A stretch of 63,182 nt of DNA, the filler included, from Kipferlia bialata (lineage: Eukaryota), in NCBI GenBank assembly GCA_003568945.1. It is 6 parts of 6 records of this genome, joined end to end, with 100 filler letters (N's around TTAATTAATTAA, not from the genome) between each part and the next. Parts side by side here need not be neighbours in the genome. Positions count along the whole stretch, not along the records: positions 21,106 to 31,555 come from BDIP01001422.1; 5 more parts are not named here. One strand, given 5' to 3'. The notes below the pieces were generated by a model. It was given only the letters and a program-made list of their open reading frames with translations. It made no database searches and had not been told where the DNA came from. Positions 4,650 through 59,391 of the stretch are shown piece after piece (the first letter of the stretch is position 1; every line of letters starts with the position of its first letter). A program made the position numbers and the translations under genes.

Positions 4650-7047
4650 CCTCTTATACCTGGATGTAAATTTATCATCATAGCTACCCACCCTGTCCCC
4701 CCCCCCCAATCTCTCTCATACCCTAGGAATAGCACTGTTGCTCTGACCCGGCGTCTCCCTCTCTCTCTCCCTCCCTCCCTCCCCCCACCCCTCTCTCTCT
4801 CTCTATATATATATACATCTTACCCCAGGTATAGCACTATCGCTGCTCTGACCCCCACCTGTTACACAAGGACAGAGGCAGCCATACACAGAATGTCAAG
4901 GTAAGAATAATTACATTCTAGTATACTATAGATTATAGGGTGTATCATATAATGAATCAGAAGTATCGTAATATATACTGTATTATATTGTGTATAGTAG
5001 GACAGAGGCAGCCATACACAGAATGTCAAGGTACACGGATACATCCACTAATATGTCTATACCACCAGCGTTGAGCGTTGCATACATGTTTGGTAGCTAT
5101 CTCTAACCGCAGGCTGGAGGGTGTGATTGCGGGAGAGATTATGAAGGGAGAGACAGAGACTGAGGGAGAGAGAAAGATTGAGAGAGAGATTGAGGCTGAG
5201 GGAGACACAAGGGCCCTTGGCCTAGTAATGCAGTTGGTCAGAGTCAGGGCACTGCAGGTAAATACTAATATATATACATTTGTTCGTAATTCTCCTTCTC
5301 ACCTCAGTGTGTGCTGTACATGCATGCCAGACAGTACACTGCCTGTCTGACTACACTCAGGGGGCTCATAGCAATAGCACCAGGTGAGTGCATCAATGCA
5401 TTGTTCTGCAAATATTGTGTATCATTACAGCTAGGTCCTTACTCTAGACTGTTTGCCACCCTTGTCTGTGTGCACATATTTATCTATACTATACTCTATA
5501 ATACATTCATATATATACTATGGATAATATGTCATGTACTTCACACTATAACCTTATCTAAGGACCTTGTTCTGGTCTGTTTCCCACCCTTGTCTGTGTG
5601 CACATATACATCTATACTAATGAATATACACTAATCATACCATCCCATATGGATACTATCGAGTATATCTTATAGCTAGGCCCCTGCTCCGGTCTGTTTG
5701 CCACCCTTGTCTGTGTGCACATGGGCGAGATGGGCATGGCCCAGCAGTGGATGCAGGTAGAGTATATAGTGTATACCATTATGTGTTATATATATGTGTA
5801 TATGTAAATATATTCATTATAGTGAGTGTATATTGTGTATGTGAGATGGGCATGGCACAGCAGTGGATGCAGGTATGGCATATGTTTATATAGATATAAT
5901 AATTAGATATGGCTCTATGTATACATAGAAGTTGTGTGCATAGTGTTATTATATGGTGGGCGTGGTGCAGCAGTGGATGCAGGTAGGGTATAGTAGTAGA
6001 AGATTTGAGACTCATATGTGCAGGATGTTTCGTCATATGTGTTCGTCTAACCTCAGTATGTCCAGGACAGTCTCTCTCTCTCCTTTCCCCCTCTCTCTCT
6101 ATATATATATATTCTCTCTCTGTACTCTATCTTACACCAGTATGTGCAGGACTGTCTCTCCCTCTATTCAGAGCAGTATGGGCCTGGGAAGGATGACTTC
6201 ACTGGGGACATCACACCCCTAAAGGATGCATATGCGGCACTAGGTAACCTCCGATATATATTTCTACGTCCGTCGGGAATCGAACCCTGACCCCCCAGGT
6301 GTGAGTCTGCTGTCACTTGCCCCAGTGGATAGGGACACTGGCGTAAGGCGTAAGTCGGCCAAGGATGTGGTTGCCACCCCAGCCACACCCCCTGTCATCA
6401 CAGACCTATCCCTGCAGAGTGCATTCAGCTGTATGAGGTGGGTATATCATATATTCATAATGAATTAGGGTATCGTGTGTTGACTAACCTAGCATATAGG
6501 TATAAGTATGTAGACTAAATATATCTGTATGCTCACCCCAGGGCCAGCAAGGCTGTTGACTCTGGTGACCTAGTAGGGGCACTGGACGGGGTGGAGGACA
6601 CAGTGAGGTATTCAGTATATATAGTATATACATGTATATATATTCTATATGGATATGTATAGTGGATAGATGACCTAGTAGGGGCACTTGATGGAGTGGA
6701 GGACACAGTCAGGTATAGTACATAATCATGTGGATATACTGTACCAGTCGTATTGAAATGTGGAGTCTGGGAATATACATACATTCCCTCTGACCCCCAG
6801 GTCCAACCCAGAAGCCACAAGGACACCCCTGCTACGGTATATGAGGTAAGGACAGAATGCATGTATATCATATCATAGTGGCACCAGCGAGAATCGAACC
6901 GTAGTCCCTCCAGTCCTCACCCCCAGGATACTGCACCGTCTGTGCTACCCGTTGGATGTCCAGGACACCCTCTGCGACTGTCTGGATGCCATTGTGTCCC
7001 AGTGCCAGGGGAACAGATGGGCAGACTTCTACCACTCTAGCAAATAG
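4650..7047 (+). CDS. Hypothetical helical protein, 5'-truncated, multi-exon
   Basis: In-frame exons: RLEGVIAGEIMKGE...LVRVRALQ / CVLYMHARQYTACLTTLRGLIAIAP / GPCSGLFATLVCVHMGEMGMAQQWMQ / YVQDCLSLYSEQYG...DAYAAL / ASKAVDSGDLVGALDGVEDTVR / ILHRLCYPLDVQ...WADFYHSSK* (TAG 7045-7047). No family recognised. Confidence 0.55.
6265..6390 (-). mobile_element. tRNA-derived SINE-like or tRNA-Val(CAC)-like remnant inside an intron
   Basis: Minus strand reads GGTGTGGCTGGGGTGG (A-box-like) ... GACTCACACCTGGGGGGTCAGGGTTCGATTCCCGACGG (CT-CAC-AC loop, B-box GGTTCGATTCC). The cloverleaf is not intact. Confidence 0.4.
6879..6916 (-). pseudogene. tRNA 3'-half-like fragment inside an intron
   Basis: Minus strand GGAGGGACTACGGTTCGATTCTCGCTGGTGCCA gives a T-loop/B-box plus an acceptor-like end. 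No 5' half is present. Confidence 0.3.
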
Positions 7048-7365
7048 ATAAGAGAATGTGTAGAAATGAAGGTGTTGAAATTACAAAGCAATCCACACTA
7101 CACCCTTTTGTGTTTTTGTTTCCAATTCTCTTGAATGTTGGCCTCAGTGAGGGTCGGTTCACGCTCTGTTCTCTGTCGCATATCCCAGACTGAGGTTTGT
7201 AGAGTGTAGGCGAAGACATACACTGCTACCTGGGCCCATAGTCTTGTCCTCTGTGTGGAGAGATTGAGAGAGAGACACCCTATCCCAAAGGGTATAGTCT
7301 CTTACTCTGTGCCGACGCTTTAGAGCACAACGAGAGAGGGAGAGACAGAGAGAGAGACAGAGTAG

Positions 7366-9233
7366 ATGGCGCTATCTGCCGATCTATTGATCCTGCTCAA
7401 CGCATTCAGCAACATTGATCTGTATGAAGCAGGTAGGATCAGTATATGCATAGTGGTGTATACATGTATATATGCATTTTATGAAGCGGAGGTCCTTCGT
7501 CTATTGATACTGATCTCTGCAGAGCCCCCCCTCATCTCTCCCTCTCTCTCTGTCACAATACACTCCTACATCACTCACCCCCAGGTGTCTGTGTCTTCAA
7601 CTCCTTATTCTGCATCCCCCCTCCCCCTCACACACCTCTCTCTCTCAGTATACAAACTCACTCCCAGGCGTCTATGCCTTCAAGGTCCAGGCTCTGAATG
7701 AGTCAGGCATCCTGGTGAGTTATATGGCTCTCTTCTCCCTCTCTCATGATGGATCCTTCTCATCCTGCCTATTTCTCTCTCCCTCTCTCTCTCTCTCTTA
7801 CCCGGCACACGCTGTTCCCTTATCCATACAATGGAACTCTCTCTCTCTCTCACTCCACATATCTCTTCACGCTTCTCTCTCTCTCTCTCTCTCTTTATAT
7901 AACCCCAGCACCCCCTGATGTATGCCAATGTGGTAGGGGACCTGAGTGACTATCAGACACTGACTCCGGGGAGATACAGGTACATGACAATATGTAGAAG
8001 AGATAGGAGTATGTACTTATATATACTAGTTGTATACATCTTGATGCTGACCTGAGTGACTATCAGACACTATACATCTAAGAACACAGTACGTATCCGT
8101 AGTCGTCTATACTGACTCACAGGATTGACTCCCTGCCCCCCACCATTGCAGAGAACAGCCCGACATTCTACTCGCAGCCAATACAGGTATTGCATGATGC
8201 ATATACGTGTTACTGGTACAGTAGATGTATTATTAGTATTAGTATTACTATGGTAACTTAATTATTATTGTAGTATTATTATCGTGTGCTCACCTCCAGG
8301 TCAAGTACTGTGACCAGTTCGTGCCCCTGTCCAATCTGCTCAGGTGCAATAAGATATATATAGTTGCGTATATAGGAATCAGTACAGTCTGATTCTCCGT
8401 CTACAGCTTACCCTCTGACTCATCTCCTCTTGTATACTCTTATTCCAGAATGCGTGTTGATCTAGATGCTGACTCCTGTGAGTCAAGTCTGATCCTGGTC
8501 TTCTCTCTGCTGTACCACTCCAAGGATAACCCGGCACCCTTGCCTACCCACCAGAGTGAAATGGAGGTATGAATCCTAACTTGAGAGTGATGTGTATGAT
8601 TATATCGGTACTTACATCGAGTCCCCCTTCTCACTCTAGGTTGTGTCTCGGTCTGTATGCAGTGTCACACATACATATACATAATAGCACGAATATAGAT
8701 CTGTATTACTATATATATATATATGTATATACCCATTTTGATGCCAGGTTGTGTCTCGGTCAGTCTTTAGGGTCAGGCACTGTCTGTTGCCAGGTATGGC
8801 AGTTATATCTACCCACTTCTGTATCTTGACCTCTCTCTCTCTCTGTCTCTCTGTCTCTCTCTCATATTAGGCGCCTCTGCCTTCACCGTGACATTTGATG
8901 ACACCCACTTCTGTGCCCTTGATGTCATGCTGACATGCTGTCCAGCAGGGGAGAAGGCTGTAGTATNNNNNNNNNNNNNNNNNNNNNNNNNNNNNNNNNN
9001 NNNNNNNNNNNNNNNNNNNNNNNNNNNNNNNNNNNNNNNNNNNNNNNNNATATATATACATACATACATTGTGCATTGGATGTCATGCTGACATGCTGTC
9101 CAGCCGGGGAGAAGGCAGTCGTGTTAGGTACATACTCTATAGACTCATGTCAGAGAGTGTGTCTCTCTCTCTCTCCCTCTCTCTAACATCTATCCGAGCC
9201 CCCCATGTCCACCTTCCCCACTGCCAGTCGGGC

Positions 9234-9276
<43 letters not shown>

Positions 9277-9471
9277 ACCCTAGCTGACCCACCAATGTCC
9301 CCCTCCCCCACTGCTAGTCAGGCCCTGCTCACAAGGGACACAGAGGGGGGAGCTAGCTTATCAGGTAATGTAATAGAGTGATGTATATATATAGAGAGAT
9401 TGAGTCAGGCCATATTGACAAGGGACACAGAGGGTGGAGCCAGTCTGTCAGGTAGTATATATAGAGTAATG

Positions 9472-9505
<34 letters not shown>

Positions 9506-10453
9506 TATTGAGTCAGGCCCTGTTGACAAGGGTGGAGCCAGTCTCATATCAGGTATTTCATTGTGTACACAAGTGTGTGTTGCGTGTGTGTCATACTCTC
9601 ACCACTCGAGGAGTCCTCTATCTCTCCCTCTCTCTCTCTCTCTCCAGTTGTAGGAATGGGCATATACATTTATATAAGTCACCCCCCAGGCATGGGCAGT
9701 CCCCTCTCCTCCAAACACTCTATACGTGTCTTACAGTATGAATATATAAATACTTGTATATGTATTGCATTGAATACTATACTCTATCTCACCCCCTAGG
9801 CATGGGCAGCCCCCTCTCCTTCAGACAGAGTGTGCGCATGAAGAAGAGAGATGCAAGGTGTGATGTGGGTATTACGTGGATCTTTATAAATGTATATATA
9901 TAGAGAGACACACACACACACACAGAAACAGAGAGAGTGTGTGCACGAAGAAGAGAGACGCAAGGTCTGGGTTAGTATATATATATACATATATGTGTGT
10001 ATATATATTGAGAGACAGAGAGAGAGCCTATGAAGAAGAGAGACGCAAGGTATTGATTAGTATGTATATGGAGATAGATAGAGATAGAGAGGGAGAGAGA
10101 GAGAGTGTCCATGAAGAAGAGGGCCGGGAAGTATGGGCGAGTGTATGTACATCATCGATTGTTCTATCCTCTACGCGATTCCTCACCATTAGTCTTGTCC
10201 CAGATGAGGATGACATGCCAGAGTTCTATGTTTTTATATCTAGTATTGTCATGTCTATTAACATATACTGACTGTTACTCGATTCCTAACCTTAGTCTTG
10301 TCCCAGATGAGGATGATATGCCAGAGTACTATATATGTATATATATATATATTTTCTTTTCACGGTTATTTCATATATACTATTCAATGCCTCACCCCCA
10401 GCCTTGTCCCAGATGAGGATGACATGCCAGAGTAGCACATTTTACAAATATAA
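7366..10453 (+). CDS. FAM135-like protein, N-terminal part, 3'-truncated
   Basis: MALSADLLILLNAFSNIDLYEAGVYAFKV...FYSQPIQVKYCDQFVPLSNLL...VVSRSVFRV...FTVTFDDTHFCALDVML parallels the FAM135 N-terminus (FYNVDLFQRGYYQIRV...SRVFQILYRNEEV...VPVMFDYFHLSVISV). Confidence 0.65.
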
Positions 10454-21154: not shown

Positions 21155-21162
<8 letters not shown>

Positions 21163-24100
21163 AGGTGGGCTCTGCCATCCCATAGGTGTATATACAAGGT
21201 AGATATGCACGTAAGATCATTACCGTAGAAGACATGATTCTTGCAAATACCAATGTATATCCACGCCACTCACCGTCCAGCAGTAGAATCGAGGGTCTCC
21301 CGGTCAGTGCGATGGCCAGACTGCACCTGATGGGTCAGTGAAATATGGTATGTATATACTATATACACATACTATATACACTTGTATGATGTCAATGTAA
21401 TGGCCAGACTGCACCTGAAGGGTCAGGGGCGTATTACAATATACAAATGATGCCCCCAGACAGGGTGTATCTCTCTCTCTCCCTAGCTCTATACACATAC
21501 CCATACTACACATATAATATACTGTACCTCCGCTGCATGCCCCCAGACAGGGCCCCGATGCGGTGGTCCCTCTTCTCGGTCAGGCCTAGGGGTAAGGTCA
21601 TACACAAGGAGAGGGAGGGAGAGAGGGAGGGAGAGAGTAAAGAACCACACACTCTAGCGTACCTACGCTCTCAATGAGTGGGTCAACTGCAGCCAGTGCC
21701 TCCTGTCTAGACAGACCCCTCAGCCTCATGTAGAAGACAACCTCCTCGTGCACAGTAAGCTCGAGGTGGAGTCTAAGGGGTCAGTACGTCTGTACGTGTG
21801 AACACATACAACAGTAACAGTTCAAATACACTAGATCTATATACTGTCTCTCACCTGTCATGCTGTGGACACACTCCCAGCTGACTCAGCAGCCTGGCCT
21901 TGTCCAACCTGGTCACATCGCCACCAGCTATGTAGACAGTGCCGCTACGGTTAGTATATATAGTCGTATGTATATACATATATTATGAATGTCTGTAAGT
22001 GTGGCCTTGTCCAACCTGGTCACATCGCCACCAGCTATGTAGACAGTGCCGCTAGAGTTAATGTCTGTAGTCGTTTGTATATATATATACTATGTAGGTA
22101 TGTATAGTACTTGTCCAGCCTGGTCACATCACCCCCAGCTATGTAGACAGTGCCGCTAGGGTTAGCATGTAAAGAGTGGAATGAATACAAAGCTATGTAG
22201 ACAGTGCCACTGAGGGTAAGGAAAGGTAGTTGGAATGTATGATGACACGACATAAAACTATACTAACACAATAGGTGTGTGGTCCCATCAACAGTACCAC
22301 TGAGTGTTAGTATGTATAAATATTGAATCGAAAGAGTGGTACACTGGAAACCGCAGTATACCTAGTTGGTCTGAGTGTGCCGCATATGAGGTTGATGGTG
22401 GTAGATACACATTCATATATGTATATAGATAGATATATACTCATATATATATATATATATATATACTATACCTTGTGGGTCTCAGTGTGCCGCATATCAG
22501 GTTGATGGTATATATACAGTATATATGCTTATAATACTATACTCATATAAAGATATAAGTATACATATATACCTCGTTGGCCTGAGTGTGCCGCATATCA
22601 GGTTGATGGTGGTATATATACGATATACATATGAATACACTCATATATACATGTATAGATGTTTCATATACCTAGTAGGTCTGAGTGTGCCGCATATCAG
22701 GTTGATGGTGGTATATATATATAGATAGATATATAGATATATAGATATATAGATATATATTTGTGTATATATATATGTACTATAATGTACTATATGTTAC
22801 CTAGTTGGTCTGAGTGTGCCGCATATCAGGTTGATGGTGGTAGATACACATTTATACATGTATATATATAGATATATACTCATATGTATATATATACTAA
22901 TGCATTCTACCTCGTTGGTCTGAGTGTGCCGCATATCAGGTTGATGGTGGTATATATACAGTATATATACTCATAATACTATACTCATATATAGAAATAT
23001 ATATATACTATACCTAGTAGGTCTGAGTGTGCCGCATATGAGGTTGATGGTGGTGCTCTTGCCAGCACCGTTCTCTCCTGGGGTGTGAGCAAATGTATAC
23101 ATACGCATATTTATATATATATAGAGAGAGAGAGACGAGTTAGAGGTCATTCGAACAAGAGCAAGGAATATCCATATATACACTTAGCATCCCGAAGCAC
23201 ACGAGAAACAGACACAACACACACATATACAGGTATATAATCATTGAGAGAGAGATACCTAGCAATCCGAAGCACGTGTCCTTGTCGACAGCAAGGGAGG
23301 TACGGTGAACGGCAGTGTTGGCTGGGTCTCTACCCGTGGCCGGGAATACCTGGGTATGGGAAAGAATACAGAAAGACAGCGTGTGAATAATAGTAGAAAT
23401 ATCACTCCTAGATCGAATATGAGAGAGGGCCGGGAAAACTCACGCAACACACTAAGCACTATACCTGCAACTCTATTGTATCCATTTATACCAGTTTATA
23501 TACATATACCTTCTTGAGCTGTGTGATGACCAAGGGTGGCAGACCACTTGCCATATATATAGTACGTCATGCTTTTAGAGAGTGTACATAATATGTAGTG
23601 TATAGTACATACCTTCTTGAGCTGTGTGATGACCAGAGGTGGCAGGCCACTCTCTCCCTCTGTCTCTCCCTCTCCCCCTCCCGCTGTCCCTGTCTCCCCC
23701 TTGACCAGTGTCTGCACCCTCTCTCTCTCAAGGGCGACATCGGCATCCTCATCTACAGTTAGGGGCGTATAGATATACTTACTTATGATATATAGTATAT
23801 AGTAAACACTATGTGTCTGTATTCTCTCTCAAGGGCAACATCGGCATCCTCATCTGCAGTGAGTATAATTTGTATGAGGTATTGTCATCCCATACATGTA
23901 TACTACACAAATACCAGTACCTTCCTCGTCTCTCTGCCCATCTACCAGTAGGGCAGTGGTCTCTGTACCAGAAGACTCTCCCTACAGTGAATGATATAGA
24001 TATAGCTAGAGGTAGTAATAGTGGGAAACAAATGTTCACTACACTCTATATGTACAGCTGTGCAGTGCATATCCTCACCTCGCAGGCGTTGGCCCCGTAC

Positions 24101-24353
24101 TTCTCTCTCTCTCTCTCTCTCAATGTGTATGTATAACTCATATATAAATATAGGAACACTATGGTACATTGCATCCTCACCTCGCAGGCCTTGTTCTTGG
24201 CCTTGGCCCCGTACTTCTCTCTCTCTCTATATATATATCTATACATACAGAATGTAGCTACTAACCTCGCAGGCCTTGTTCTTGGCCTTGGCCCCGTACT
24301 TCTCTGGGAATATGTACCCAAGGAAGAAGAGAGGGTTCAGACGGGACTAGAAT

Positions 24354-24393
<40 letters not shown>

Positions 24394-24700
24394 GAGATGT
24401 ACCCGAGGAAGAAGAGGGGCTAGGGTAAGTTACATATTAATAATTTAGAAAATGACAGATATAGAGAGAGAGAAGGAAGAAGTGGGGGTTCAGACGGGAC
24501 TGGGGTAGGAAATATTGAAGCTCAAACATTGACAACACAGAAATATCAATACGCTATACAGTAGAACCCTACCTCCCCAGCCGTTGGGAGTACGTTGTCC
24601 AGATAGCTGCCTATCAGTCCATAGACCAGACCCTCAAGCACAAGCATAGCACAACCGAAGAGGAATTGTCTACCTCTGGGGGTAAGTATCGGGTATGGAC

Positions 24701-24731
<31 letters not shown>

Positions 24732-26344
24732 ACACTCCCCAAGCACGCATGCATGAAACAGTAGAAGAGAGAGTACTCTATATACATACATCAGTGTGAG
24801 TCCAGTCATATCGACAATGATGAGGGAATATAGAGCAGTCGCAGAAACTATACCATATATCACATACCTCAGTGTAAGTCCAGTCATATCGTCCATGGTG
24901 ATCCTCTCTCTCCCCCTCTCTCTCTCTCTCTCTCTCTAATACTACTTATATATATACCTCAGTGTCAACCCAGTCATATCGTCCATGGTGATCCTGGAAT
25001 CCAGAGGGCCAACGGGGGTGAGGTAGGCTAAGAGTAAGGAGAGAGAGAGAGAGAGACAGAGTTACACAAGATGTTGAAGAGCAGGAAGAACGCTATATAT
25101 ATATGAACAGGTAAGGAGAGAGAGAGAGAGAGAGAGAGTAGCCAGAGGGCCAATTGGCGTGAGGTAGGTGTTAGATTGGAGTGAGAAACCAACAGAGCAG
25201 AAAGACATAGTACACGTTGAGCGGGAGGAAGACACACACGCACATGTATACTGAACTAAAACATGAATGGAACACATGTAGTTGAATAACGGTTCTAGTA
25301 CTCTACGTACGTACACAGAACGCTACATATACATGAACAGAGACAGAGAGACTACATACACAGCATGTTGAAGAGCAGGAAGAAGGGCCAGACGTATATG
25401 CAGTCAGGGACACCGAGGAGCAGGAACACATTCTGGTAGATGGGGGCCTAAGGGTTAGATATATATATATATACATAGAGAGAGAGAGAGAGAGTCTGGG
25501 ACGCCGAGTAGGAGGAACACATTCTGATAAATAGGGGCCTGGCAATAAGGGGGTAGAGGGGGGGGGGGAGAGAGAGAGAGAGAGATTATGTGACACGCAG
25601 CAGCAGTAACTCTCTGCACGTGTATGGAAATGGATGAACTATACCTGGAACAGTAGGATGATGACTGAAGATATCTGTAATAGAGACTGCCAAGAAGATT
25701 GCTGTCTTTGTCTTTTTGATAATACATATAACATCAATAATGGCCAGTAATCAATAACATCAATTCCCTAACTACACACCTGGAACAGTAGGATGATCAC
25801 TGCCAGGAAGATGGCCGTCTTAGTCTTTGTGAAGAATATACCAGCACACAATAATAGTAATCAATTCTCTCAGTGTGTACCTGAAATAGCAGGATAATCA
25901 CGGCCAGGAATATAGCCGTCTTTGTACCTCTAAATACTAGTCTCTAAAAGGATAAAATACCTGGAATAGCAGGATAATGACTGCCAGGAATATAGCTGTC
26001 TTTGTCTTTGTGAAGAATGCGGCATAGCACAGAGAGACACCGGCACAGGCTATACCCCAGGAGACACCTGGTGGTTAAAGGGTGTAGAGAGAGAGAGAGA
26101 GGGAGAGAGACACCGGCACAGGCAATGCCCCACGAGATACCTAAGGGTTAAAGGGTGTATAGGGGGAGAGAGAGAGAGAGAGAGAGAGAATGCCGCATAG
26201 CACAGGGAGACACGGCACAGGCAATGCCCCACGATACACCTATAGTCAGAAAAAGGGTGTAGAGAGAGAGAGAGAGAATGCCGCATAGCACAGAGAGACA
26301 CCGGCACAGGCAATGCCCCAAGATACACCTAGGGATTAAAGGGT

Positions 26345-26396
<52 letters not shown>

Positions 26397-28790
26397 TACA
26401 CACCCACAAAAGCAAAGTCACCCATATACTCATAGTATATAGGTCTAAGTACTGAGAGAGTGTCGGTATCCAACTGTGCACTCATGATGACCCAGGCCGG
26501 CATAGTATACACACATATACTTACATACGTATAGAAAATGAATATTGGCACTACTATAGTATACTATAGTATACAAGTAGATATATATATATATATATAC
26601 TCACTCAGAATGCCTATAAGTATATATATATATATGTCTTCACTCACTCATGATGACCCAGGCCAGGCCAGCATTGTCTGTGTACTCGGGCTGGGGTTAT
26701 GAGAGACAGAGAGAGAGAGAGAAAAGATACAAACTTATACCGGCATTGTCAGTGTACTCGGGCTGGTGAGTCAGACATAATGAGAGAGAAAGGTATAGAG
26801 AGAGACTTATATATAATAGAAATAGAAGAAAATATTTCATGTATACATTGAAAATTGTATACCCACCTGATTTGTGAATAGTCCGTAGAAGTACACAAAG
26901 GCATAGACCAGGACAGAAGTCTTGCATTCATATACAAATACATATACATATAGTACATGAGTATAAGTATAATAGTATGTGGAATACCCACCTGATTTGT
27001 GAACAGCCCGTAGAAGTACACAAAGGCATAGACCAGGACACTGATGGCAAAGCAGGAGATCATCCAGGAGATGTAGTAGGCCTTGAACCTGCGAGATAAG
27101 CATTTCATATTCATATTACGCGAGATATGCATAGACCAGTACACTGATGGCAAAGCAGGAGATCATCCAGGAGATGTAGTAGGCCTTAAACCTGCGAGTT
27201 AAGCTATTACTATATCGCGAAATAGGCACTGAGGCATATACGCGAAACAAGCTCTGTCAAAATGGTTCACAATGAGAGAGAGAGAGAGAGAGAGACTTAC
27301 CTCATTCCAGCCAGGAGCATGTTCTCCTTGAGCTTGTTCTCCTTCTCCTGGGGTGAAGAAGATATATATACGTATATATATATACATATAAAAATGAACA
27401 AGCGCAATAATGATGAATGAGTGTCAAAAGAATGCTCTCCTTGAGCTTGTTCTCCTTCTCCTAGGATGCAGATATGATGATACAATGTATATATATATAT
27501 ATCTATTTATTTATATATATGTATATATATATATGAAGTAATACAATAGCTTCTCCTAGGATGTTAATATGATGATAATACAATGTAAACACACAAATAT
27601 ATATATACACACACACATATATAAATATATATATAATAGTAATAGAATGGCGCACAATGATGACGAATGGATGTCAAGATGATGTTCTTCTTCCTCCTGG
27701 GGTGAATGACAGACCCCTACACACAGTGTTGAATTGATACAATAATGGTGAACATTTGGGTTGTGAACAGATATGAGTCCATGCAAATAGAACACACACC
27801 TGGATGATGCTCATCACAAACACGAACGTCATTATAAGAAATACAATACACTACAAACAGTATATATATAGTGTAATCTTTCCTTACTATGTCTAGCTAA
27901 TATCCACGAGATATATATATTAGATATATATATATATATTATGCATGTCCATGTACCTGGATGATGCTTGTGATGTGTATCACAAACACAAAGGTCAGCA
28001 CGAAGCAGAGCAGGGGGAAGGTGAGGGAGGAGATCTGGAAATGAGGGTGTTGGGAGAGAGACAAAGTGTATGTAGATTCACACTGTGAAGACATAAGCCA
28101 GTATACTGATATTACTAAATATTTTGGTACATATTGATTGTAATGAAAGAGCACAAATACTGTCCCTCTGTATCAACATGCACTCACCACTGTGTTGGTG
28201 CCCATTGGGATGGGGTAGGTCAGGATGCTGAGTATATCAATGTATATTTATATGTATATATACTAATACACATATATACTAACAATATGGATGCACTCAC
28301 CACTGTGTTGGTGCCCATGGGTATGGGGTAGGTCAGGATGCTGGGGGTGAGAGGGTGAGTGCGACAAGTATACATCTATATTCATATACACGTACTTAAT
28401 TTCTTGTGACCGTTTGACCTGCCCTTGTCCAAAAGAACCCCAAGTGTAAACAAAGAGAGAGTATATGTAAAATATATAGTATGTAGAAGTGTGTTCAATA
28501 AGTATAAATGTACTGATATATCATACGCAGTACGTACTGTATCTCCTGGGAGGGATATGCCTTAGATCTCCCCCCCTTCTCGGCCCATGCCTCTAGGGCC
28601 AAACAAATGAGGGTGTAGACTATATTACATATATATACACATATGTATACACATATACGTACTGTATTTCCTGTGAGGGATAGGCTTTGGATCTGCCCCC
28701 CTTCTCGGCCCATGCCTCTGGGTCACCAGATACAATGAGGTCAGAGACAATGCCCTCGAAGATAAGGAGCATCTGGGTGCCCTTGAGTTA

Positions 28791-28822
<32 letters not shown>

Positions 28823-29303
28823 CAATGAGGTCAGAGACAATGCCCTCAAAGATGAGGAGCATTTGTGTACCCTAATGTAAGAGAGAGAGAGACAATGAGG
28901 TCAGGCACAATGCCCTCGAAGATGAGGAGCAACTGAGTGCCCTATGGTGAGTGCTATACAGTATCTATAGTATATATAGAGAGTATATGTGTATACATGT
29001 ATATATATACTGGACAATGAGGCCAGAGACCATCCCCTGGGGTTAGAAAGAGAGAGAGCATATAGATATACATTCACTTACCACAGAGTACATACATCAA
29101 TATATAGGCATCATATATATCTATATATACATATACTCATTATTGTTGCTGTTCCCATTGTTACATCTATACATATACATATATACTCTGTGTATTATAT
29201 ATATATACATATTATACCTGTATCATGATGTTGGTCTGCATGCAGTTGATGTAGCCAATGAGGTCACTCTATACAATAGTACTATCCACAGAGTACTATA
29301 TCA

Positions 29304-29341
<38 letters not shown>

Positions 29342-31555
29342 TACCTGTATCATGATGTTGGTCTGCATGCAGTTGATGTAGCCAATGAGGTCGGCCATCT
29401 GGATGGTGTAGTCTGCAACAATAGTCTGAGATAAGGGTGTAGAGGGGGAGAGTGTGTGTATAGACATACGCCACAGTGTAGACCTATACTTATCCAGTAC
29501 CTCTGGCTTATGTGGGTATGATGCTGTCTCTGCATCATAGAGGAACATGTCTGTGCCCTCCCTCACAGTATATATACATACAAATCAATATATACATATC
29601 CAATACTATACAATATAGACAGATTAGACAAAGGCATATCTAATACCTCTGGCTTGTGTGGATAGCTAGCTGTCTCGGCATCATAGAGGAACATGTCTGT
29701 GCCCTCACATATATGTATGATACACTGTATACTACTGTAATATCATAGCAGATATTGTACCTCAGGCTTATGTGGGTATGATGCAGTCTCTGCATCATAG
29801 AGGAACATGTCTTTGCCCTCACAAAGTATATACATACATATCTATATATACATATCCAATACTATACAATATAGACAGTATATACAAAGGCATATCTAAT
29901 ACCTCTGGCTTATGTGGGTATGATGCAGTCTCTGCATCATAGAGGAACATGTCTGTGCCCTCCCTCACAATGTAGGCAGCATTGGGCATGATGTTGACAT
30001 AGGCCTATAGTTAGGGGTGTAGAGGGAGAGAGCGAGAGAGAGAGAAGGTGTGCAGCATGATGTGGCTTCTGTACTACTGTACTGTTACTATACATACCTT
30101 AGTATCCATCATGTCCTGCATCCACAGGTTGTAGTTAACATATATAGTCTCTACTTCTATATTATTGTCACACTATGTCTTACTACATTTATACCATAGT
30201 AGTGAACATATGTATAGATACACTATACCTTAGCATCCATCATGTCCTGCATCGACAGGCTGTAGTATACACACACATACTAGTACGAACATATATGATA
30301 AATATACCCATCGTACAGTCTACTACATAGTATAATATAGATATACCTTACTGTCTACCATGTCCTGCATTGATAGGTTGTTGTTGCACCACTCCATCGT
30401 GTCATAGAGATACCAGTATTCTATACATATATACATGCCTTACTATCATATATATACACTAGTATACTATATACATATATATATGTGTGTGTCTGTACCT
30501 TACTGTCCACCATATCCTGCATTGATAGGTTGTTGTTGCACCACTCCATGGTGTCATAGAGATACTGGTCCATCTCATACTCAGAGTCAAAAGGCTCCTA
30601 GTCATTAGAATAAGGGGAGTTTCATTAGATTAGGCTATTGCATATATATATATATGTTAGATCTACAAACAGGGAGAGAGGGGGAGTTAGATCACGGTCC
30701 ATTCCTATTCCTTCTTGGAAGAAGAGTGACTGTGGTAATAACTGTGGATTCTCTTCTAATCTCTCGATACATAGCTCCATACATGCTTTACATTTCCAAT
30801 ACAAATAAAAAATTTGCATACCTCTACTACGTTAGGGAACCTCTCACAGTAGTACACTGGGTATGGCTGGTCCTCGTCCCAGTAGTTAGGGACGCAGTAC
30901 TCAGACAGAGTATCTATCTGACAATAAGGGTGTAGAGAGAGAGAGAGAGAGAGAGAGATAGGGAACTAGAATGATACTAGTATGGACTACACACAAGGTA
31001 TCCATCAAGTAGTGACTGCAGTATTCGCTATACTCCAGATTAGAAGAGACCATTGAGTGGTTCCACGTGCCGTGTAACCAAGCATAAATTGACCATGTAC
31101 ATATGTAAATGTATACATATGTATGCTAAAAATTCACGTACCGTGTAACAAAGCAAATTCCTCCACATCCCACTGTATGTAGTGTCGTCTCCCTATAGAG
31201 AGCACATACTATGCGTATACTACATGCTATGAATACTATACGTACCGTGTATCCTAAGACGTTCCTCCACATGCCACTGTATGTGGTACCGTCTCCATAG
31301 AAGTGGTTGGTCTCATTCATGTGGATGTAGCCCCACTGCGCAGCGTCTAGGAGTTAGTGAAGAGTATACACTCCTATTTACACAACCACACACACCTACA
31401 CCGTTACACTATAGTGTCAAAACGATATATCGCGTAATGACTCACTTGCTGGGTCCTCGAATGTCTGCACAATGGCACTGATGAAGCCATTCCTGACATG
31501 AGGGTGTAGAGAGAGAGAGAATACAAAATGGCACTGATGAAGCCATTCCTGATAT
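21155..31555 (-). CDS. ABC transporter subfamily A, internal fragment spanning the whole scaffold, about 30 tiny exons
   Basis: EKENKLKENMLLAGMR..FKAYYISW (ABCA hallmark), TM exons, Walker A GENGAGKSTT, GVCPQHD, LTVHE, signature LSGGMQRR, Walker B ILLLD|EPTSGL. Confidence 0.92.
22003..22951 (-). repeat. Intronic half-exon echo arrays (6 donor-side and 3 acceptor-side copies)
   Basis: Copies of ACCATCAACCTSATATGCGGCACACTSAGRCCNACNAG|GT at about 22361, 22471, 22572, 22671, 22800 and 22910. Copies of AG|YGGCACTGTCTACATAGCT.. at about 22003-22054, 22110-22158 and 22192-22212. Confidence 0.95.
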
Positions 31556-42409: not shown

Positions 42410-42433
42410 TAGATTGCCCTTGAGACTGACTGG

Positions 42434-42479
<46 letters not shown>

Positions 42480-44888
42480 TATATACTATACTATATATAC
42501 TATATATATATATACTAAATGTATAGCTGATACTCAGATTGCCCTGGAGACTGACTGGGCATTTGGGTCTATATGTATATACTATAGTATATATATTATA
42601 TATACTATTTAAATATTCTTAGTATATATGTCTGACTCTTAGATTGCCCTTGAGACTGACTGGGCATTTGGGTCCGTAGTTGCAATAGGGGAGACATACA
42701 TGGTAGCATCCGCCAAGCATGGTATGGCAGTGCATATTTCAGTATATTTCTATATATGTAGAGAGAGAGGGTAGGAGACATACATGGTGGCATCATCGAA
42801 GAATGGTATGAGAGTGTGACAAACTCTCTCTCTCTCCCTCTCTCTCTCTTCCTCTCTCTCGGGAGCGGGTAGTTTATATCCCATTATTGTTCACTCTATA
42901 TATCACTATACCCTTACCCATTCAGGCCTCTATGTATCTGCCCTATCTGACTCTGGGGAGGGGGCATTATTAAGATATATACATATAGTAGATTTATACA
43001 TGGCTATGTATGATTATATAACACCAGGCCTGTATGTGTCTGCCCTGTCTGACGATGGGGAGTGGGTTATATATATATGTGTGTGTGTATATATAGTATT
43101 ATAACACCAGGCCTGTATGTGTCTGCCCTGTCTGACGATGGGGAGTGGGGTAGTGCCATGGCAGTCAGTGCACCACAGGGTATGGATACATATACATATG
43201 TATATATAGAAATATTCAGTTATGTATAATGTGTATATCATTGCCATAAACACATAAATACCAGTGTGTGCCTCAAAAGCTATGTGTAACTATTGTTATG
43301 TATATAAATTCCTTGTCAGCTATATTGGTGAATGTATGTTCTATGTATTGTGTTCAATGACACACTCTTCTCACCCTATAGATATTGCTCTACTTTCTAT
43401 ATATTTATATATATATGTATACATATTACCCATCCTCACTCCCATGCACTCTCTGGGGTGGCCTGAGTGCACTGGCCCATGAGGGGGACACACTGGCAGT
43501 AGGTATGTGTGTACATGGGTGTATATTTCTATATATACATCTATATAGAGAGAGACTTTGTACTGCATGGGGGGGGACACAATGGCAATAGGTGGGTGGC
43601 GTACTATTGGGTCTTGTTTTTGTTATCACGTGAAAATGTAGATACTGATGTAGCGCACTAGACGTGTCCACATTGTACGTGTTTATATATAGGTGAGTAT
43701 ATATGTATGTGTCTTATGTGTACCTGTCTAACCGCAGAGGCTGTAGGTAAGCCTCTTAATATATATATGTATACATAGGTGTATATCAGTATGTACATAT
43801 TACTATTATGTATGTGTCTTTCGTGTGCCGGGTTTATATATGAGATAGATATGGGTATATATACATATATATATGTATGTCTTATGTGTGCCTCTCTAAC
43901 CGCAGAGGCTGTCGCTGACGATGTCACCGACTATGAGGATGGTCTTCCACTGGTACGGTAATATATATACACTATATATATATATACTATATACATCACG
44001 CCCTCCCTGATGCCACTGCCTATCCACTAGGATGGTCTTCCACTGGTACGGTATTCTTGTGTATCTAGCGATTATTGTTTGTTATTAGTAATGTATATTA
44101 GTATTCTTAATACATTAAGTGTGACGATGGTCTTCCACTGGTACGGTGCTGTATACTGAGTTAGTATATAAATATATATATATGAATATATGGATGTATG
44201 CATACATATATGGATAGTCTTTCACTGGTACGGTATTGAATGTATACATGCACACATATATACATTGATTCTATTGGAGTAAAGTATGTATTAAACTCTA
44301 ATGTGTATATGAGTACTATGATACAAATCCTATATTTTGGCATTCCTTTTTGTATATACTCCCGCACATATGACACGTAAGATTTCTATGTATGACACAT
44401 TATTTCAACTGTTCATACTTCAACTTTAGGTGGTTATCTATCTTGTTTGTAGCCAATTCTAGCCGGTTATGTATCTAACTCTAGGTTGTTGTCTTCTCCA
44501 CCAACATCCCTGAGTGGTGGACAGAGGGCAACGTGGCAATGGCACAGGTATATTTACATATATATAGTAACCTATACATATAATGATGCATGTATAGTCC
44601 CCCTAGTGAATGTGTGTGAAGAGAACTATTATGCCATATATTGATTCTCTCTCTCTCTCTGTCTCTCTTTGTCTGTGCGTAATCCAGCGTCTGACATTCC
44701 CTGTCTGTTCCTCTGGTCTATATGTACATAATAATATAGGAAATAGTATATATTATTAATACAATAATATGTATATATAGTATTATATATATAATATATA
44801 TATTATATATATTATATATATTGTATATAGACCAGAGGCATGTATACATATTTCTTAACTCTTCTTACCCAAGCGTTTCACCTCCCGT

Positions 44889-44939
<51 letters not shown>

Positions 44940-45708
44940 ATACATATATATATATAAACATAAATATACTCCTTACCCCCAGCGTCTCACCTCCCCTGTC
45001 CACTCTAGTGACACTATCCAGTCCTATGGGGTGTCGATATCACTGCCCTATTGCAATGAGGGACAGAGGCCGGCATTCCTAGGTGTATATATATATATAC
45101 AAATATATGTGTGTATAATTGTATATATATATATATATATATATTTGTGTGTATATATATGTATATATATATAATTACTCTACTATTAGGACAGAGGCCG
45201 GCATTCCTAGGTGCCTTTCTCTATGGATATAAGAAAATGTATAATAGTGTATGTAGATGCTTACATATATCACTCACACACTGTTACCCAGGGGACGAAG
45301 CCCACATTCCTAGGAAAGTTTGCATATGTAATATACATTAATTGTACATTTACATTAGAGTATGTATATAGATGTCCTGTGAGCGGTACTCTTTCTTCTT
45401 GTAACCCCTAGCCGTTGGCGAGCCCTCCAAGACTGTGATGGGCATGGAGATATACCACTATATATATGTATGTATATTAATATATCAAGACTGTGATAGT
45501 ATGTGTATATACATACTATATTACTATACCTGACTCCCAGCCGTTGGCGAGCCCTCCAAGACCGTGATGGGCATGGAGATATACCACTATATATATGTAT
45601 GTATATCTCTCTGGAATTGTATATATAAATATATCATCTTGTCTACAACACTTTCTCTCCTTACCCCTAGCCGTTGGCGAGCCCTCCAAGACTGTGATGG
45701 GCTTGGAG

Positions 45709-45739
<31 letters not shown>

Positions 45740-48700
45740 CAAGACTGTGATTGTATGTGTATATATATACTATATTACTATGCCTGACTCCCAGCCGTTG
45801 GCGAGCCCTCCAAGACCGTGATGGGCATGGAAGAGGGGGGGCTGGTGCACATATACACGGCAGATGGTATGGATATAAATTATAATAAATATAAATATAT
45901 ACGTGTGTGTGATATAATATATATATGTATATATATATATATGGACTGGTGCACATATACACGGCAGATGGTATGTGTATGTATCATTATTATATATATG
46001 TATACATATATATATATATATATATACGTGTGTGTGATATAATATATATATGTATATATATATATATATGTGGACTGGTGCACATATACACGGCAGATGG
46101 TATGTACATGTATTTTTCACCTATATATATATGTGTGTGTGTGTGTGTGTATGTATATATATATGTGTAAAGACTTGACTATATATACTATGTGGTCGAC
46201 TGGTGCACAAATACACGGTAGACGGTATGTACATGTATACTTATATATGTGTGTATGTATGTGTGTGTATGTGTTTTGTATATACTTGAATATATATACT
46301 GTATATATGCTGGTGCACATATACACGGAAGACAGTTCAGTATACACAATGTATGTGTATGACTATCTTATCACCATTGGCAGTGTGTATTCATGTATGA
46401 AAGACACATTTGTATGGGTATTCTGTAAGAAATGTATATGTGGGTATAACTGATTAACCAGTTACCCTCCTCACCCTCAGTTGGCTTCTACCAGTATCAC
46501 ACCTCTCTGTCACAGGCACCGGTCACCACAGGGGCACACTTTGGGTGGAAGGTACGCGGTTTATGTGTGAATATATACTCATGCGTAGTGTATATACGTT
46601 TGCATACAGATATCTTCGGTCTCCATCGTCACTCTGACTGTTTCTCTTGCAGATTGAGTTCTCTCTATATCGATATGTACTCTGTATGCAGTAACACTCT
46701 AGGTCTCCATGGGCGCCTTCACTGTTGCCGGTGCATTCACCTATCTTCCAATATGGATCCATACACATACATAATTACACTAAGCACATATTCACACTGT
46801 ATATTCACGCATCAGGTCTCCATGGGCGCCCTTGCTGTCGCTGTCGCCGGTGGCTATGGCTCAGACACCTATGTCACACTGTACAAGATGGATCCCAATG
46901 TCGGTGCATTCATACCGGTACTCGATAAGTGGACAGGTGGGGGTATATACATAGTATGTGTATATACACATATATCATTCTCCAGTCTCCTGTGTGAAGA
47001 CTCTAGGTACTATATGTGTAAGCACTATTCATTTGGAGGTAAGATGGTCTGATCCCAGGTTCCGTATCCTCTCTCGCCCTCCCTCCCTCTGGAGACGAGG
47101 TCTATATAGGGGCACCTACCTCAACAGAGGAAGGTACACACAAAGAGGGAGAGGGAGAGAGAGAGATATCTCGAGAGGGAGTTGGAAAGGACCTAGATGG
47201 TGGGTTCCATGGGGGTGTTCTGCCCCTGTCACAACTGTATGTGTACATTGATACCTTCGTACGCCCTGTAGAGGGCACGTTCCAGTGCTGCCAGCCACTG
47301 GGAGGTATGTGTATGGATATATATATGGTATATATATATATGTGTGTATGATCCAGTGCTGCCAGTCACTGGGGGGTATGTGTATGGTGATGTATATGGT
47401 ACATCGACATATGTATGTATATTGCAAGTATATACATGGAATATCCCCAAACTTCACATCCTTCTATAGCAAGGATGCCTACGGATATATGTGGATATAC
47501 GTATAGATAGATATATGTATATAGCATAAGCATTCATATCCTGTAACCCCAGACCCCATGTCCTTCTATGTCAAGGATGCCAACGGATATATATATATGA
47601 ACACACACATATACCTATATGTGTACTTATATGTACAGCATATGTATGTGGCATATCCCATATCTTAAAACCCCAGCCCCCATGTCGTTCTTTGTCAAGG
47701 ATGCCTACGGGGGGTTCATCAGTGAGGATATGTCGGACAAATTGAAGGTATGGTACCTTTATGCTACTCATATATATTGTATACATTCATATATAGAGAC
47801 ATATGACCCAGTGTCTCTGGACATCAATGAGGACATGTAGGACAAGTTGAAGGTACATGGTACAGGGTATATAATGGATATATATATGTATGTTTCCATG
47901 TATAGTATGTCTATATTATTGTATTATGTATTTGTATTGATATGGGATGGATATTTGTGGATACGTATATTGGTATTGTATTCACACGAATCCGTATGGG
48001 ATCATGTCACTGGGGACATGTCAGACACGCACCTGTTAGGCATTTACGGATATACATATATATATAGTATTATCATGTATGTATACCTGCACCCCCTGCT
48101 ACATCCTAATACCGAGTATAATTGGACATTGACACAGAGCAGTGAATACATTTGAACAAAATGATTTCATATAGATGACTCTCTCCCTCTATATATATAT
48201 ATATATATATGTGTGTGTATGTACTGATATGCCCTTCTCACCCAGGTCTATTGGGACATTGACACTGACCACCTGTACCCCCAGCCCATCACACACATAG
48301 AGGGTGTGTATGGTGATGGGACCCCTGTCATTGGCAAGTACGATGTGGACGTGACATCACCAGCAGAGATAGGTACATATGTGTATATATGGATGTATAC
48401 ATATATAGAGAGAGAGTACATAGAGCACGGAGACCAGTGTATGGGGGGACCTGTCATGGGGCCTGGAATAAGACTGTGTATACACATGTATATACACACC
48501 AATAATATTGTAATATTATAATACTCAGGCAGCCACGGCATCACTGTGTATATATGTATATATATACTGTATATATACCGTATATATACAGATATATACT
48601 TATACCCATACCCTATGTTCATAGTCTATATACCCTAACACACTTAGGCAGCCAGGGCATCACCGTATATCTTGACGGTCTCCCAGCCGCCAAGGCATAC

Positions 48701-50861
48701 AACACCGTATACTCCTACACATGCCCATCCCTATCCACCGTAGAGGGAGGGGGGGTGGAGGGGGAGTCATTCCCCTTGAGTGTTACCTTAGTGGATGGCT
48801 GTGGCACACCTAGAACATCAGGTATCCATTGAGTGTACATTGAGTGTATTACTATCCACCATAGAGGGAGGGGGAGTGGAAGGGGAGTCCTTTGAGCTTA
48901 GTGTCACCTTAGTGGATGGCTGTGGCACACCTAGGAAATCAGGTAACAATATGTAATTCTGTGTTGTTTATGTATAGTGTACATATATATTGTGTACCAC
49001 TGCTTGATGGCTGTGGCACACCTAGGACGTCAGGCACTCAATTTATACACATGACGTGTAGTATTACACAATAGTCTAGTGCACAACGGACCGTATTGAC
49101 TTCACTGCTACAGTGTAATGTACATATTAATTGGAGAGTATTCATATTGTGAATATATATTGTAGTGATTGATAAATATTACTTTCTCTTGTCCCCAGAC
49201 AACAGCCAGGCTGTGGTGGTATAGAAGGAATATAGGTTATACATACACGCACATATATAGTATATATATACACTAGAAGTTTACAATATATTTCTATATG
49301 TACTAATATATATCATACTAACATGCATCATTGACCCCACATACTACCCAGTCTGTTGTGGTGTCAGACAAGGACACAGATAACCTCTACTCTACTATCA
49401 TATACAATTCACTATACACTATCGGTCTACAATCTTCTTTCCTCTCTTACAGTCAGATACCAGCCAGGCCTTGGTTGTGGTGGTGTCAGACAAGGACACA
49501 GACACCGAAGTGTTCTCTGACATCGCATACGACTACGGTACCGGTACGTACACCATATATATGGATATACACACACCTATATATATATGTGTGCGTGTGT
49601 ATATACATGTATATACATATATCATTTGTCTTCTAGTCAGATGTGACTGAGTGTTTCTCTCCATACTGTATTATCTCCCTTGTTCTTTACTCTTACTGTC
49701 CAGGCGTGTATGTCACCACTGTGACACCTCTAGAGGAGGGTGTCTATACGGCAGCGGTATATACAGAGGGAGAGAAGGTGCGTTTGTTTGTGTATGATTA
49801 TCCATACTCCAGTTGGGAACAACTCAATGGCAACAGACTGTATTGGCATAGTCCTGTTATGTTAGTATATTTCAAATGTCATTTGTATCTACACTTGCAT
49901 TCTAACACCCAGGTCTCCAGCGATATATACATATGCCAGCAGACTGTGCCAGAGAATGATAATTGTAATTCATCATATATATAACCACTGGGTCTAGTAA
50001 ATCTTCATTTAGATATATATATATCTATATATCTACTTCTAACACCCAGGTCTCCAGCGATATATACATATGCCAGCAGACCGTGTCGGATAGTGTCCAT
50101 CTGAGTAACCAGTCGGCACTGGCGGTACCAACCATCGTTACAGTGGGGGACAAGGTGGGTGGTCACGAATGTATATATGCATAGTTCTCACCTACATATA
50201 ACCCCAGGTCACAGCCACCGTCTCTGTTGTTACCCTTAAGACTGGTCCCACTATATATGTATCTCTCTCTCTCTGTGTGTATGTATATAGATATGGACGT
50301 TCATATCTCATCCTAGGTCACTGCAACCGTGTCACTAGTTACCCTTGAGACTGGCCAACTACATCTGACTCTCTCTCTCTATCTCTCCATGTTTCTCTCT
50401 ATATATATATATATCTCATCCTAGGTCACAGCCACTCTCTCCCTTGTTACCCTTGAGACTGGTCCTACTGTGTCAGTATCCCCTGTCCGTATAGACATAG
50501 ACACTGCATCATACACCATGCATGCAGAGGGAGAGCTCTATACTGCAGATGTGGTGTTTAATGAAATAGGTAATGATGTGTGACAATACCGAGATAGGTG
50601 TGTGATTAATTCCTATCCTCTTTTACTCTAGGATCTGCTTCCGTCTCTGTCTTTGTGGCCGGTTCCGACACCCCTCTAATATCCACCCACATAGAGGTTG
50701 ATGGCATACCACCAGAAACTGGCATTAGCATATCAGCAATTGTCGGGTGGTGTCTGCTAGTGATACTGGGTATATACACTGTGGTTAGGGAGCTAGCACT
50801 AGCCAGGGTGAGGAGGAAGAGGTATAGCATGCTGGCCAATGGCCTTGCCAAGAAGATGTGA
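42410..50861 (+). CDS. Type I membrane protein with FG-GAP-like propeller repeats and Ig-like stalk (integrin-alpha-like architecture), 5'-truncated, about 20 exons
   Basis: Exons WAFGSVVAIGETYMVASA, EGDTLAVG, SYGVSISL..FLAVGEP...GLVHIY, AHFGWKVSM, EVYIGAP. Ig-like units FFVKDAYGG, VTLVDGCGTP, GVYVTTVTPLEEGVYTAAV. TM SAIVGWCLLVILGIYTVV, then basic tail RVRRKRYSML..KKM*. Confidence 0.65.
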
Positions 50862-51537
50862 GGGGGTGATTCACATTGAATGGGAGTAGAAGCATTCTGT
50901 GTGTTTCCCTCCTAAGTTGTGGCTGTTTCAATAGTTTTTGTAACCATTGGCCACTGACTAAGAATAGAATTATCAATTGGAAATTTCCATTCTGGAATGA
51001 ATGGATAGTTGCATTCTACATGCAATGATGTTGATCAGTCACCATGATTGGCAGCGGATACAGCTTTTGTCCTGAAGCAGTTATAGATTGTTTGTCTGAC
51101 ACCACATCCACCGTTGGATGCTGCAATGCAGCCTGCATACTGTCATGGACTGTATCAGTTCGGCATACGAATGTGAAATTGTTGCAAAAATGAATCAACG
51201 AGGTCACTTACGAATCGTAAGTTACGATTTATCTCTGTCAATATCATTCTGACATCCTACTGTAAACGTCTACTGTCTGGTTCACACGTATATATAGTGA
51301 CACAATACCACGGATGTTGTCACAATAGATGGTATCATTGCTGTATACATAGGTAAATCAGTACCTCATGACGTTTTGTATCGTTTCTCTAGTATACAGA
51401 CTTGCACAGATATTCCACTCCACATAGCACCACACAGTCTGTGTCTAGTCAGTATAGTCCTTGGCGTTGCTCTCTGTCTACTGACACACTACATACCAGA
51501 GGAGAGACCACCACTTGTGTTCTTCAGTCATAAGGGT

Positions 51538-52741: not shown

Positions 52742-53148
52742 TGGTTGGTTTTTTTCCCCCCCCCCCCCCCCTCCCTTCTCTCTCTCTCTCTCTCTCTCCT
52801 TTTCTCCCCCTCGGTCTCTCTCCCCCTCTGTCTTTCTTTCTCTCCCTCCCTCCCTCTGTCTTACCACTTCGGATATACCTCTTCTCATCTATTACTCTCC
52901 CCCTCTTTTCTCGCCGTTGGGTACTCTCTCCTTATGAAAGCTTCTGGCTGTCCCTCCCTCCTCATATGCATACATCATGTATATACTCTCTCTCTCTCTC
53001 TCTATTTGTGTGTCTATCTCTCTCTGACCATAGTCTTGATGACGATTGCCTGGGCTGGGCTGTCCCCCCCACCACCTTTGCATACATCCTGTACATATAT
53101 ATCTCTCTCTCTATCTATTCTTCTTGTGTATATATGTTCTAACCTTAG

Positions 53149-54267: not shown

Positions 54268-54299
<32 letters not shown>

Positions 54300-56484: not shown

Positions 56485-56647
56485 GTGTACATAGATCTAT
56501 TAGATAGATGGACAGGAATATACTCTGTTGAGAGATGGTTACTCTTGGTACCAATCGACTACATGTGTCCAAGAAACTCCTTCTGAAGGAGTAACACTAG
56601 GATATTCAATTGAATTACACCTCTGACACTTCCATATGGAACCTTCA

Positions 56648-59010: not shown

Positions 59011-59391
59011 CTCTCAGAAGTGGGTCTCTCTCACTGCTAGAGTGATTCCTCTATCCAGAGCAACTAAGCGGTCGAACGGCCACAATATTACTATGCCCTC
59101 CTGTCAAAGGACCAGTGTCGTCCTGCAAGTCACCAACAACAGCTAGTGGACGGCACAAACACGCTCACTAGTGAGGGTGACAGTGTCACTGACACTCAGA
59201 TATCTCCAACCGAAATCGAGCAAAAACGTCAAAAGGGGCTAGGAGCAGATCCAAGAAATAGCGACTCTCCACACGGCGTCGTAACAAGAGGCTACTAGTC
59301 CCGTACTCCCCCTCTTGACATCAGCGGGGACGCCTAGAGGCAGTCAAAAACCTGGAGTTTGGCCTGCTTCCCTTGTGGGAGACCTAGCAAT

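Follow-up and report, generated by a model that had tools for sequence, protein, structure and literature searches.

The intron that follows the Walker A exon of an ABCA gene in the free-living protist Kipferlia bialata contains repeated partial copies of the exons on either side of it, and the question raised by this locus is how sequence lying within an intron could diverge from those exons without altering a single amino acid. We analysed six K. bialata contigs (10,441-10,453 bases each) joined into one stretch of DNA, referred to here as the window, and all counts cover these 63 kb. One Rab exon in it matches a K. bialata protein at 100% identity. Each joint is an artificial linker of 44 N, TTAATTAATTAA and a further 44 N, and neighbours across the linkers are probably unrelated. 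All 25 hand-drawn exons of the ABCA gene are found exactly in the protein GIQ84370.1, so its reading frames are independent of the copies, which we term echoes; GIQ84370.1 is a gene prediction, and the agreement is therefore not independent RNA evidence for the exons. The parts of the gene and of the intron in question are as follows.

21274..31492, minus strand: ABCA gene, 25 exons in the contig, 47 echoes in 18 of 24 introns
23014..23077, minus strand: genuine exon R (ENGAGKSTTINLICGTLRPT), Walker A (GENGAGKST), functional copy; ABC_tran match at E=1.7e-4, exact in GIQ84370.1
22911..22951, minus strand: donor echo E1, 13 codons plus GT, 3 silent differences
22801..22841, minus strand: donor echo E2, 2 silent differences
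22672..22712, minus strand: donor echo E3, 1 silent difference
22573..22613, minus strand: donor echo E4, 4 silent differences
22472..22509, minus strand: donor echo E5, 12 codons, 4 silent differences
22362..22402, minus strand: donor echo E6, 1 silent difference, final unit of the array
22403..23013, minus strand: six spacers of 58-88 nt, rich in AT, separating the donor copies
22210..22361, minus strand: core remainder of the intron
22191..22209, minus strand: acceptor echo A3, AG plus 19 nt
22110..22155, minus strand: acceptor echo A2, AG plus 46 nt, 3 silent differences
22002..22051, minus strand: acceptor echo A1, AG plus 50 nt, 0 differences from the exon start
21855..21944, minus strand: genuine next exon (GTVYIAGGDVTRLDKARLLSQLGVCPQHD), matched with 0 differences by RNA-like contig 9, with CT..AC joints

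The layout described in the earlier note is confirmed. Six donor echoes repeat the last 38-41 nt of exon 23077-23014, each ending in GT and none of the six preceded by AG, while three copies of AG plus exon start (22209-22191, 22155-22110 and 22051-22002) lie before the genuine exon 21944-21855. A cassette or mutually exclusive exon would carry its own acceptor and donor in every copy; the focal echoes have one site each. The focal variants listed in that note are all present, and all 10 distinct whole-codon variants are silent (P=3.7e-6 against a neutral silent share of 0.29); the AGT/AGC variant lies in a split codon, was read by eye and is outside these 10. Each of the four possible pairings of the first Leu site with the Pro site occurs, and there are three alleles at Pro and three at Thr.

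The spacers of this array are related to one another (s1 and s5 agree at 56 of 61 aligned bases, s2 and s6 at 58 of 69) and unrelated to the intron after E6, scoring 14-94 among themselves (control mean 17, 95th percentile 43) and -22 to 1 against the terminal intron. The pattern is that of concerted evolution inside a cluster with the boundary unit excluded, in one array only. About 8-25% of aligned bases differ between spacers, and the echoes adjoining them carry no amino-acid change. The spacers descend from one ancestor, and the array is an old one in which the exon-like parts were kept up or replaced afresh. Nor are the units introners, as the repeats are local and exon-derived, and within the window the focal spacers score at most 56 (mean 17) against those of other arrays.

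Two possible sources of the variants were set aside. Contigs of an ABCA paralogue are too distant to be echo donors (9 differences in about 51 bases), and P0106, considered as a diverged paralogue or allele, is identical at 688 of 688 residues and matches none of 27 echo amino-acid variants. Two accessions with identical sequences are deposited for ABCA and likewise for the Rab protein (P0105, P0106, P0001), which suggests redundancy in the deposited records. One DNA contig of the paralogue, with 9 mismatches in 52 bases, connects the two sides of 21904-22377, so the paralogue appears to be without the focal intron.

The exons of 12 genes across the window were curated by hand because an automatic gene finder called echoes as mini-exons, showing that echoes can mislead such programs. 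Outside ABCA the reading frames come from phase-consistent exon chains rather than from RNA, and it is on these chains that the codon counts there depend. An ungapped nucleotide search recovered 124 echoes, compared with none in 350 control exon-intron pairs. They occupy 49 of 120 introns on five of the six contigs, and echo-plus-spacer units make up 11,955 of 61,954 bases, or about 19% of the DNA. Beyond ABCA the genes are distributed as follows.

4829..10435, plus strand: two further echo-rich genes, 19 echoes, hand-curated exons
42413..50862, plus strand: gene C, echo-rich, 29 echoes, 13 of 18 introns
52946..63049, both strands: four genes, 25 echoes
66-3883, 17094-20860 and 33038-34022, minus strand: genes without echo-bearing introns (0 of 23, 0 of 16 and 0 of 4)

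The gene at 66-3883 has short, GC-richer introns. All three of these regions lie beside echo-rich genes. Introns free of echoes are mostly 41-310 nt long and those bearing echoes 143-1069 nt, and purely intronic repeats occur in 14 introns, only 3 of which are echo-free.

Each echo is a tandemly duplicated unit of about 107 bp (median period 107.5 bp) across one exon-intron boundary, and the main spliced form observed leaves the echoes out. Their polarity is strict: 51 of 59 downstream echoes reach the 3' end of the exon and 57 of 64 upstream echoes start at its 5' end, and those that reach the boundary retain GT (49 of 51) or AG (52 of 57). Flank similarity between echo and genuine copy exceeds control for about 10 bases past GT and 16-18 bases before AG and is near background further out; 10 of 49 and 11 of 50 flank pairs can still be aligned beyond the splice signals. 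A branch-like motif accompanies 41 of 52 echo acceptors, 103 of 120 genuine ones and 276 of 1094 other intronic AGs. Silent divergence does not correlate with the similarity of these intron flanks (rho -0.07 and 0.03). The spacers are AT-rich (GC 0.28-0.32 vs 0.43).

The codon test used 123 echoes and 1340 codons, one echo having been dropped from a gene with uncertain frames. Across this set pS was 0.235 and pN 0.041, a ratio of 0.175, with differences at the three codon positions numbering 67/49/236. If the copies were dead and the exon next to them drifted silently, pN/pS should be no lower than 0.5 for echo vs exon and about 1 when echoes are compared with each other. With transition bias included and bootstrapping over 74 arrays, the ratio was 0.21 (0.15-0.29) overall, 0.12 (0.06-0.20) in ABCA and 0.31 in the other genes; echo compared with exon in ABCA gave about 0.10. 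The proposal that these pieces diverged while coding is therefore supported, as 0.175 is far from the neutral value of 1 and from the dead-copy minimum, and echoes compared with each other give equally low values (0.22 overall, 0.105 in ABCA, 0.385 elsewhere). Nor is the ratio near 1 that the earlier note offered as grounds for rejection seen when echoes are counted window-wide, where it is about 0.18. The claim that changes are only synonymous holds at the focal ABCA locus and fails across the window, where 205 silent and 109 amino-acid-changing codons were counted among the 1340, with 3 stops, and where 37 of 66 distinct among-echo changes outside ABCA are non-silent.

These values bear directly on the simplest reading, that the echoes are ordinary dead repeats undergoing neutral decay, with the silent excess contributed by drift of the genuine exon after copying. 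The layout suits that reading, weak echoes are more decayed, and 17 of the 23 distinct differences specific to the genuine exon are silent. It is nevertheless contradicted, and we consider it extremely improbable: it expects an echo-echo ratio near 1 rather than 0.22 (0.105 in ABCA, with 39 silent to 17 non-silent distinct changes, P about 7e-11), and a dead-copy simulation passed through the same detector is far from the data, giving 1.5-1.8 amino-acid changes per silent codon change compared with 0.53 observed and 0.26 in ABCA (29:112). The ABCA ratio resembles that of two coding lineages. Constraint also follows the protein domain, with silent to non-silent changes of 24:1 in nucleotide-binding exons (147 codons), 52:14 in membrane exons and 38:20 in the outer domain. 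Together the codon tests, the simulation and this domain dependence indicate that most of the divergence arose under protein-level selection. Some decay is visible, with pN of 0.063 in distal echoes vs 0.027, and 18 amino-acid to 19 silent changes in 13 weaker echoes. More frequent refreshing of splice-proximal codons is not supported, since amino-acid changes per codon run 0.074, 0.081, 0.057 and 0.031 from proximal to distal.

Parts of this arrangement have been described elsewhere. Amphioxus "mirages" (in Adh3, troponin C, the globins BflGb6/BflGb9 and PGBD5) are likewise tandem duplications of 5' or 3' exon-intron boundaries, with units of at most 160 bp, AG/GT kept and cluster boundaries outside homogenisation; the amphioxus genes are spliced normally, and in the text available the mirages concern few animal loci, with no silent-site bias reported (PMC3087553, PMC3902484). 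In Kipferlia, unlike the mirages, 49 of 120 introns in a protist window are involved, exon halves have pN/pS of about 0.1-0.2 and introns have diverged past the splice signals. The pseudogenes of trypanosome VSG and chicken immunoglobulin serve as silent donor cassettes for gene conversion, diversifying one protein family. Like echoes, such cassettes are untranslated partial copies that keep coding features and exchange with an expressed gene (as is proposed for echoes), whereas echoes lie inside the introns of their own gene, occur in many unrelated genes and leave the protein mostly unchanged. In intron 7 of human F7, a 37-bp VNTR has, as in Kipferlia, a first unit spanning the exon-intron boundary; its downstream pseudo-donors are silent, the most upstream donor being used, an arrangement that Kipferlia would share. 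The F7 repeat differs in being a single locus with a short unit and identical pseudo-sites, without coding-like divergence (PMC1557585). The Rogers model of intron gain by tandem genomic duplication (cited in PMC3087553) also involves intragenic duplication that includes splice signals, but here no new intron forms and existing introns lengthen. A literature search covering few subscription papers found no boundary repeats in Kipferlia and no silent-biased mirages; the original Adh3 mirage paper was outside its scope, and supplementary alignments of the mirage papers could show bias. The view that no such system had been described is thus wrong as to layout, which is that of an amphioxus mirage or F7 repeat, and within that search stands as to silent-site bias and density. 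The echoes are a real feature that combines a known repeat layout with a coding-like signature at high density, for which no published description was found.

Could non-canonical splicing or template switching make use of the echoes in RNA, with selection on the protein preserving them? Echo splice sites score much like genuine ones (donor 5.0 vs 5.3, acceptor 5.3 vs 6.0, with matrices partly trained on echoes), and the K. bialata spliceosome is described as reduced, with no snRNA candidates found (PMC6679479). An RNA-like contig from run X2 (presumed RNA), at depth 153, links five exons through joints with CT..AC ends; it matches 21855-21944 with 0 differences, bypassing A2 and A3, while A1, being identical to the exon start, is indistinguishable from the genuine exon by sequence. 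On the donor side it differs from E6 at 1 position and is compatible with the genuine exon or with E2; rare forms are lost in contigs. A second splice site is also missing, as none of 59 downstream echoes begins at the exon start and, of 64 upstream ones, 3 extend as far as the exon end. Use in mRNA is quite improbable on this evidence.

That the arrays might be haplotypes or strains of a non-clonal culture set in tandem by the assembler is suggested by the short-read SPAdes assembly and by methods that leave clonality unstated; "clonal" and "heterozyg" are absent from the available text of the genome paper (PMC5874029), which gives coverage peaks at 10x and 130-150x and 124,912 introns. We aligned DNA contigs (run X1, maybe the window's own source) to 21160-22845 only. 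Bins 22414-22527 and 22699-22845 are empty, repeats having been skipped, E1, E2, E5 and the R-E1 junction are uncovered, and R lies outside. Depth is 422-431 in spacers, 361-447 in flanks and 990 in a 53-nt stretch common to two copies, and two spacer contigs share fewer than 31 bases with their echoes. A single contig at depth 422 covers 22025-22397, from E6 through A3 and A2. Spacer contigs at full depth make half-depth haplotypes unlikely, and alleles would not be expected to join intron to mid-exon at one fixed position six times. Misassembly, named beforehand as grounds for rejecting the arrays, is therefore unlikely within 21160-22845, where spacer depth equals full single-copy depth, and as a general explanation it is very improbable. 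No alternative letters are listed over the same interval and depth is full, so the isolate looks homozygous or haploid at the focal intron, with the caveat that contigs drop variants.

If two copies diverged under protein selection while one was translated, the working copies must have been in different chromosomes or have taken turns. The explanation that we favour, to which we give an even chance, is the first: the silent copies would be captured or refreshed by unequal recombination from diverged working alleles on other chromosome copies. Among the candidate models of the earlier note, such capture of alleles appears to fit best, a cassette swap is a live rival and use in mRNA is unsupported. 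A short duplication would arise first, and one spanning a single boundary would be tolerated; with exons and introns of only about 60-110 nt, a duplication must include a boundary. Only the copy with both acceptor and donor would be spliced, as the RNA-like contig indicates on the acceptor side and as we infer for donors. In a very diverse population homologues might then mispair, an echo lying against the genuine exon of another allele, so that crossover or conversion would install at the echo position the end of a functional exon, silently diverged and complete with its splice signal, and selection would remove products that carry damaged echo sequence into the exon. Between refreshes the echoes would decay slowly, like dead DNA, in line with the decay noted above.

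In fornicates NHEJ and Rad51A are missing and two Dmc1 proteins, sex genes, Hap2 and Gex1 are retained, one relative being predicted haploid (PMC8516963), and Dmc1 residues have been proposed to stabilise mismatched joints (PMC6719624); allele capture fits this repair biology. It requires silent diversity near 0.2-0.3 in Kipferlia, and some free-living protists do have very high silent diversity (PMC11334263). Counting against it, the DNA contigs over 21160-22845 contain no second allele of any exon. Homology of 25-60 nt, moreover, is short for recombinase-driven exchange, and the excess of non-silent among-echo changes outside ABCA (37 of 66) also speaks against it. A search of metagenomes for other strains gave 0 matches to a degenerate exon pattern, and of 36 pattern matches 0 were confirmed. 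In favour of allele capture, three-allele codons and four-gamete patterns occur in 3 of 13 arrays with at least three echoes, the focal array included; four-gamete patterns are absent from the other 10, and same-chromosome exchange also yields them.

Taking turns is the alternative, in which slippage, single-strand annealing or sister exchange would often delete from the exon into an echo. The echo end would become the working exon end, and echoes that code part of the time would be purged of damage without outcrossing. Such turnover explains the low pN/pS, domain dependence, intact splice signals and mosaic copies, with near-identical whole units as recent expansions, and single-strand annealing is apparently available to metamonads (PMC8516963). 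If turnover were quick enough for selection to work on it, however, silent divergence should be erased, so that a pS near 0.23 would need slow turnover in an extremely large population, and no exon-echo deletion form was seen in DNA contigs over 21160-22845, from which rare forms drop out. We think this explanation unlikely, if worth serious attention, and the two processes can act together.

Homoeologous copies left by past hybridisation or polyploidy, shuffled into tandem once before the genome returned to one copy, would account for a divergence of 0.2-0.35 with a coding-like pattern and no need of a hyperdiverse population. The echo at 29706-29647 (minus strand) would suit such an origin, as its 6 changed codons are all silent and one is a TCA/AGC serine switch. 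Seven versions with three-allele codons in a single array, and a pS that ranges between echoes from 0 to more than 0.4, are unlike the product of two to four parents, and the second ABCA record, identical at 688 of 688 residues, is no diverged copy. This origin is improbable.

Should the variants be captured alleles, a single genome becomes a large test of outcrossing and silent diversity, in a group, the Metamonada, where sexual or parasexual processes have yet to be observed directly (PMC8516963). A bolder version of allele capture, tentative and in our judgement some way short of an even chance, is that introns in the tens of thousands (about 50,000 by extrapolation) form a fossil archive of former alleles, with Dmc1-only recombination, without NHEJ and Rad51A, passing exon ends back and forth between diverged chromosomes and the spare copies in introns. 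If it is true, one haploid genome shows the diversity of its population and proves recurrent metamonad sex, and the spares amount to about a fifth of the genome. If the echoes are instead kept by selection, they are untranslated intronic DNA under protein-level constraint. Echo units may also explain part of the size of the Kipferlia genome, 51 Mb vs 24-29 Mb in relatives (PMC9933649).

Several other features of the window were recorded. On the minus strand a whole 40-nt exon is doubled with both splice sites (28340-28301 and 28227-28188) and 2 silent differences, a candidate mutually exclusive pair of which the annotated protein has one copy. A 2731-codon open frame at 33956-42151 (minus strand), with internal repeats of 1287-1293 bp, probably encodes a large surface protein; a 400-residue piece of it gave no clear match in Pfam. 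An echo-type repeat pair of period 96 lies at 32636-32763, for which no source exon was found. Exons at 43446 and 55951 (plus strand), both needed for frame, start after CAT rather than AG and may follow GT-AT introns; a normal TAG is present in the echo upstream of 55951. Spacers at 12105-12161, 12756-12817 and 12842-12903 (plus strand) contain inverted CAGTAT/ATACTG repeats that could form hairpins, and similar motifs occur near 14540-14580 and 14960-14990.
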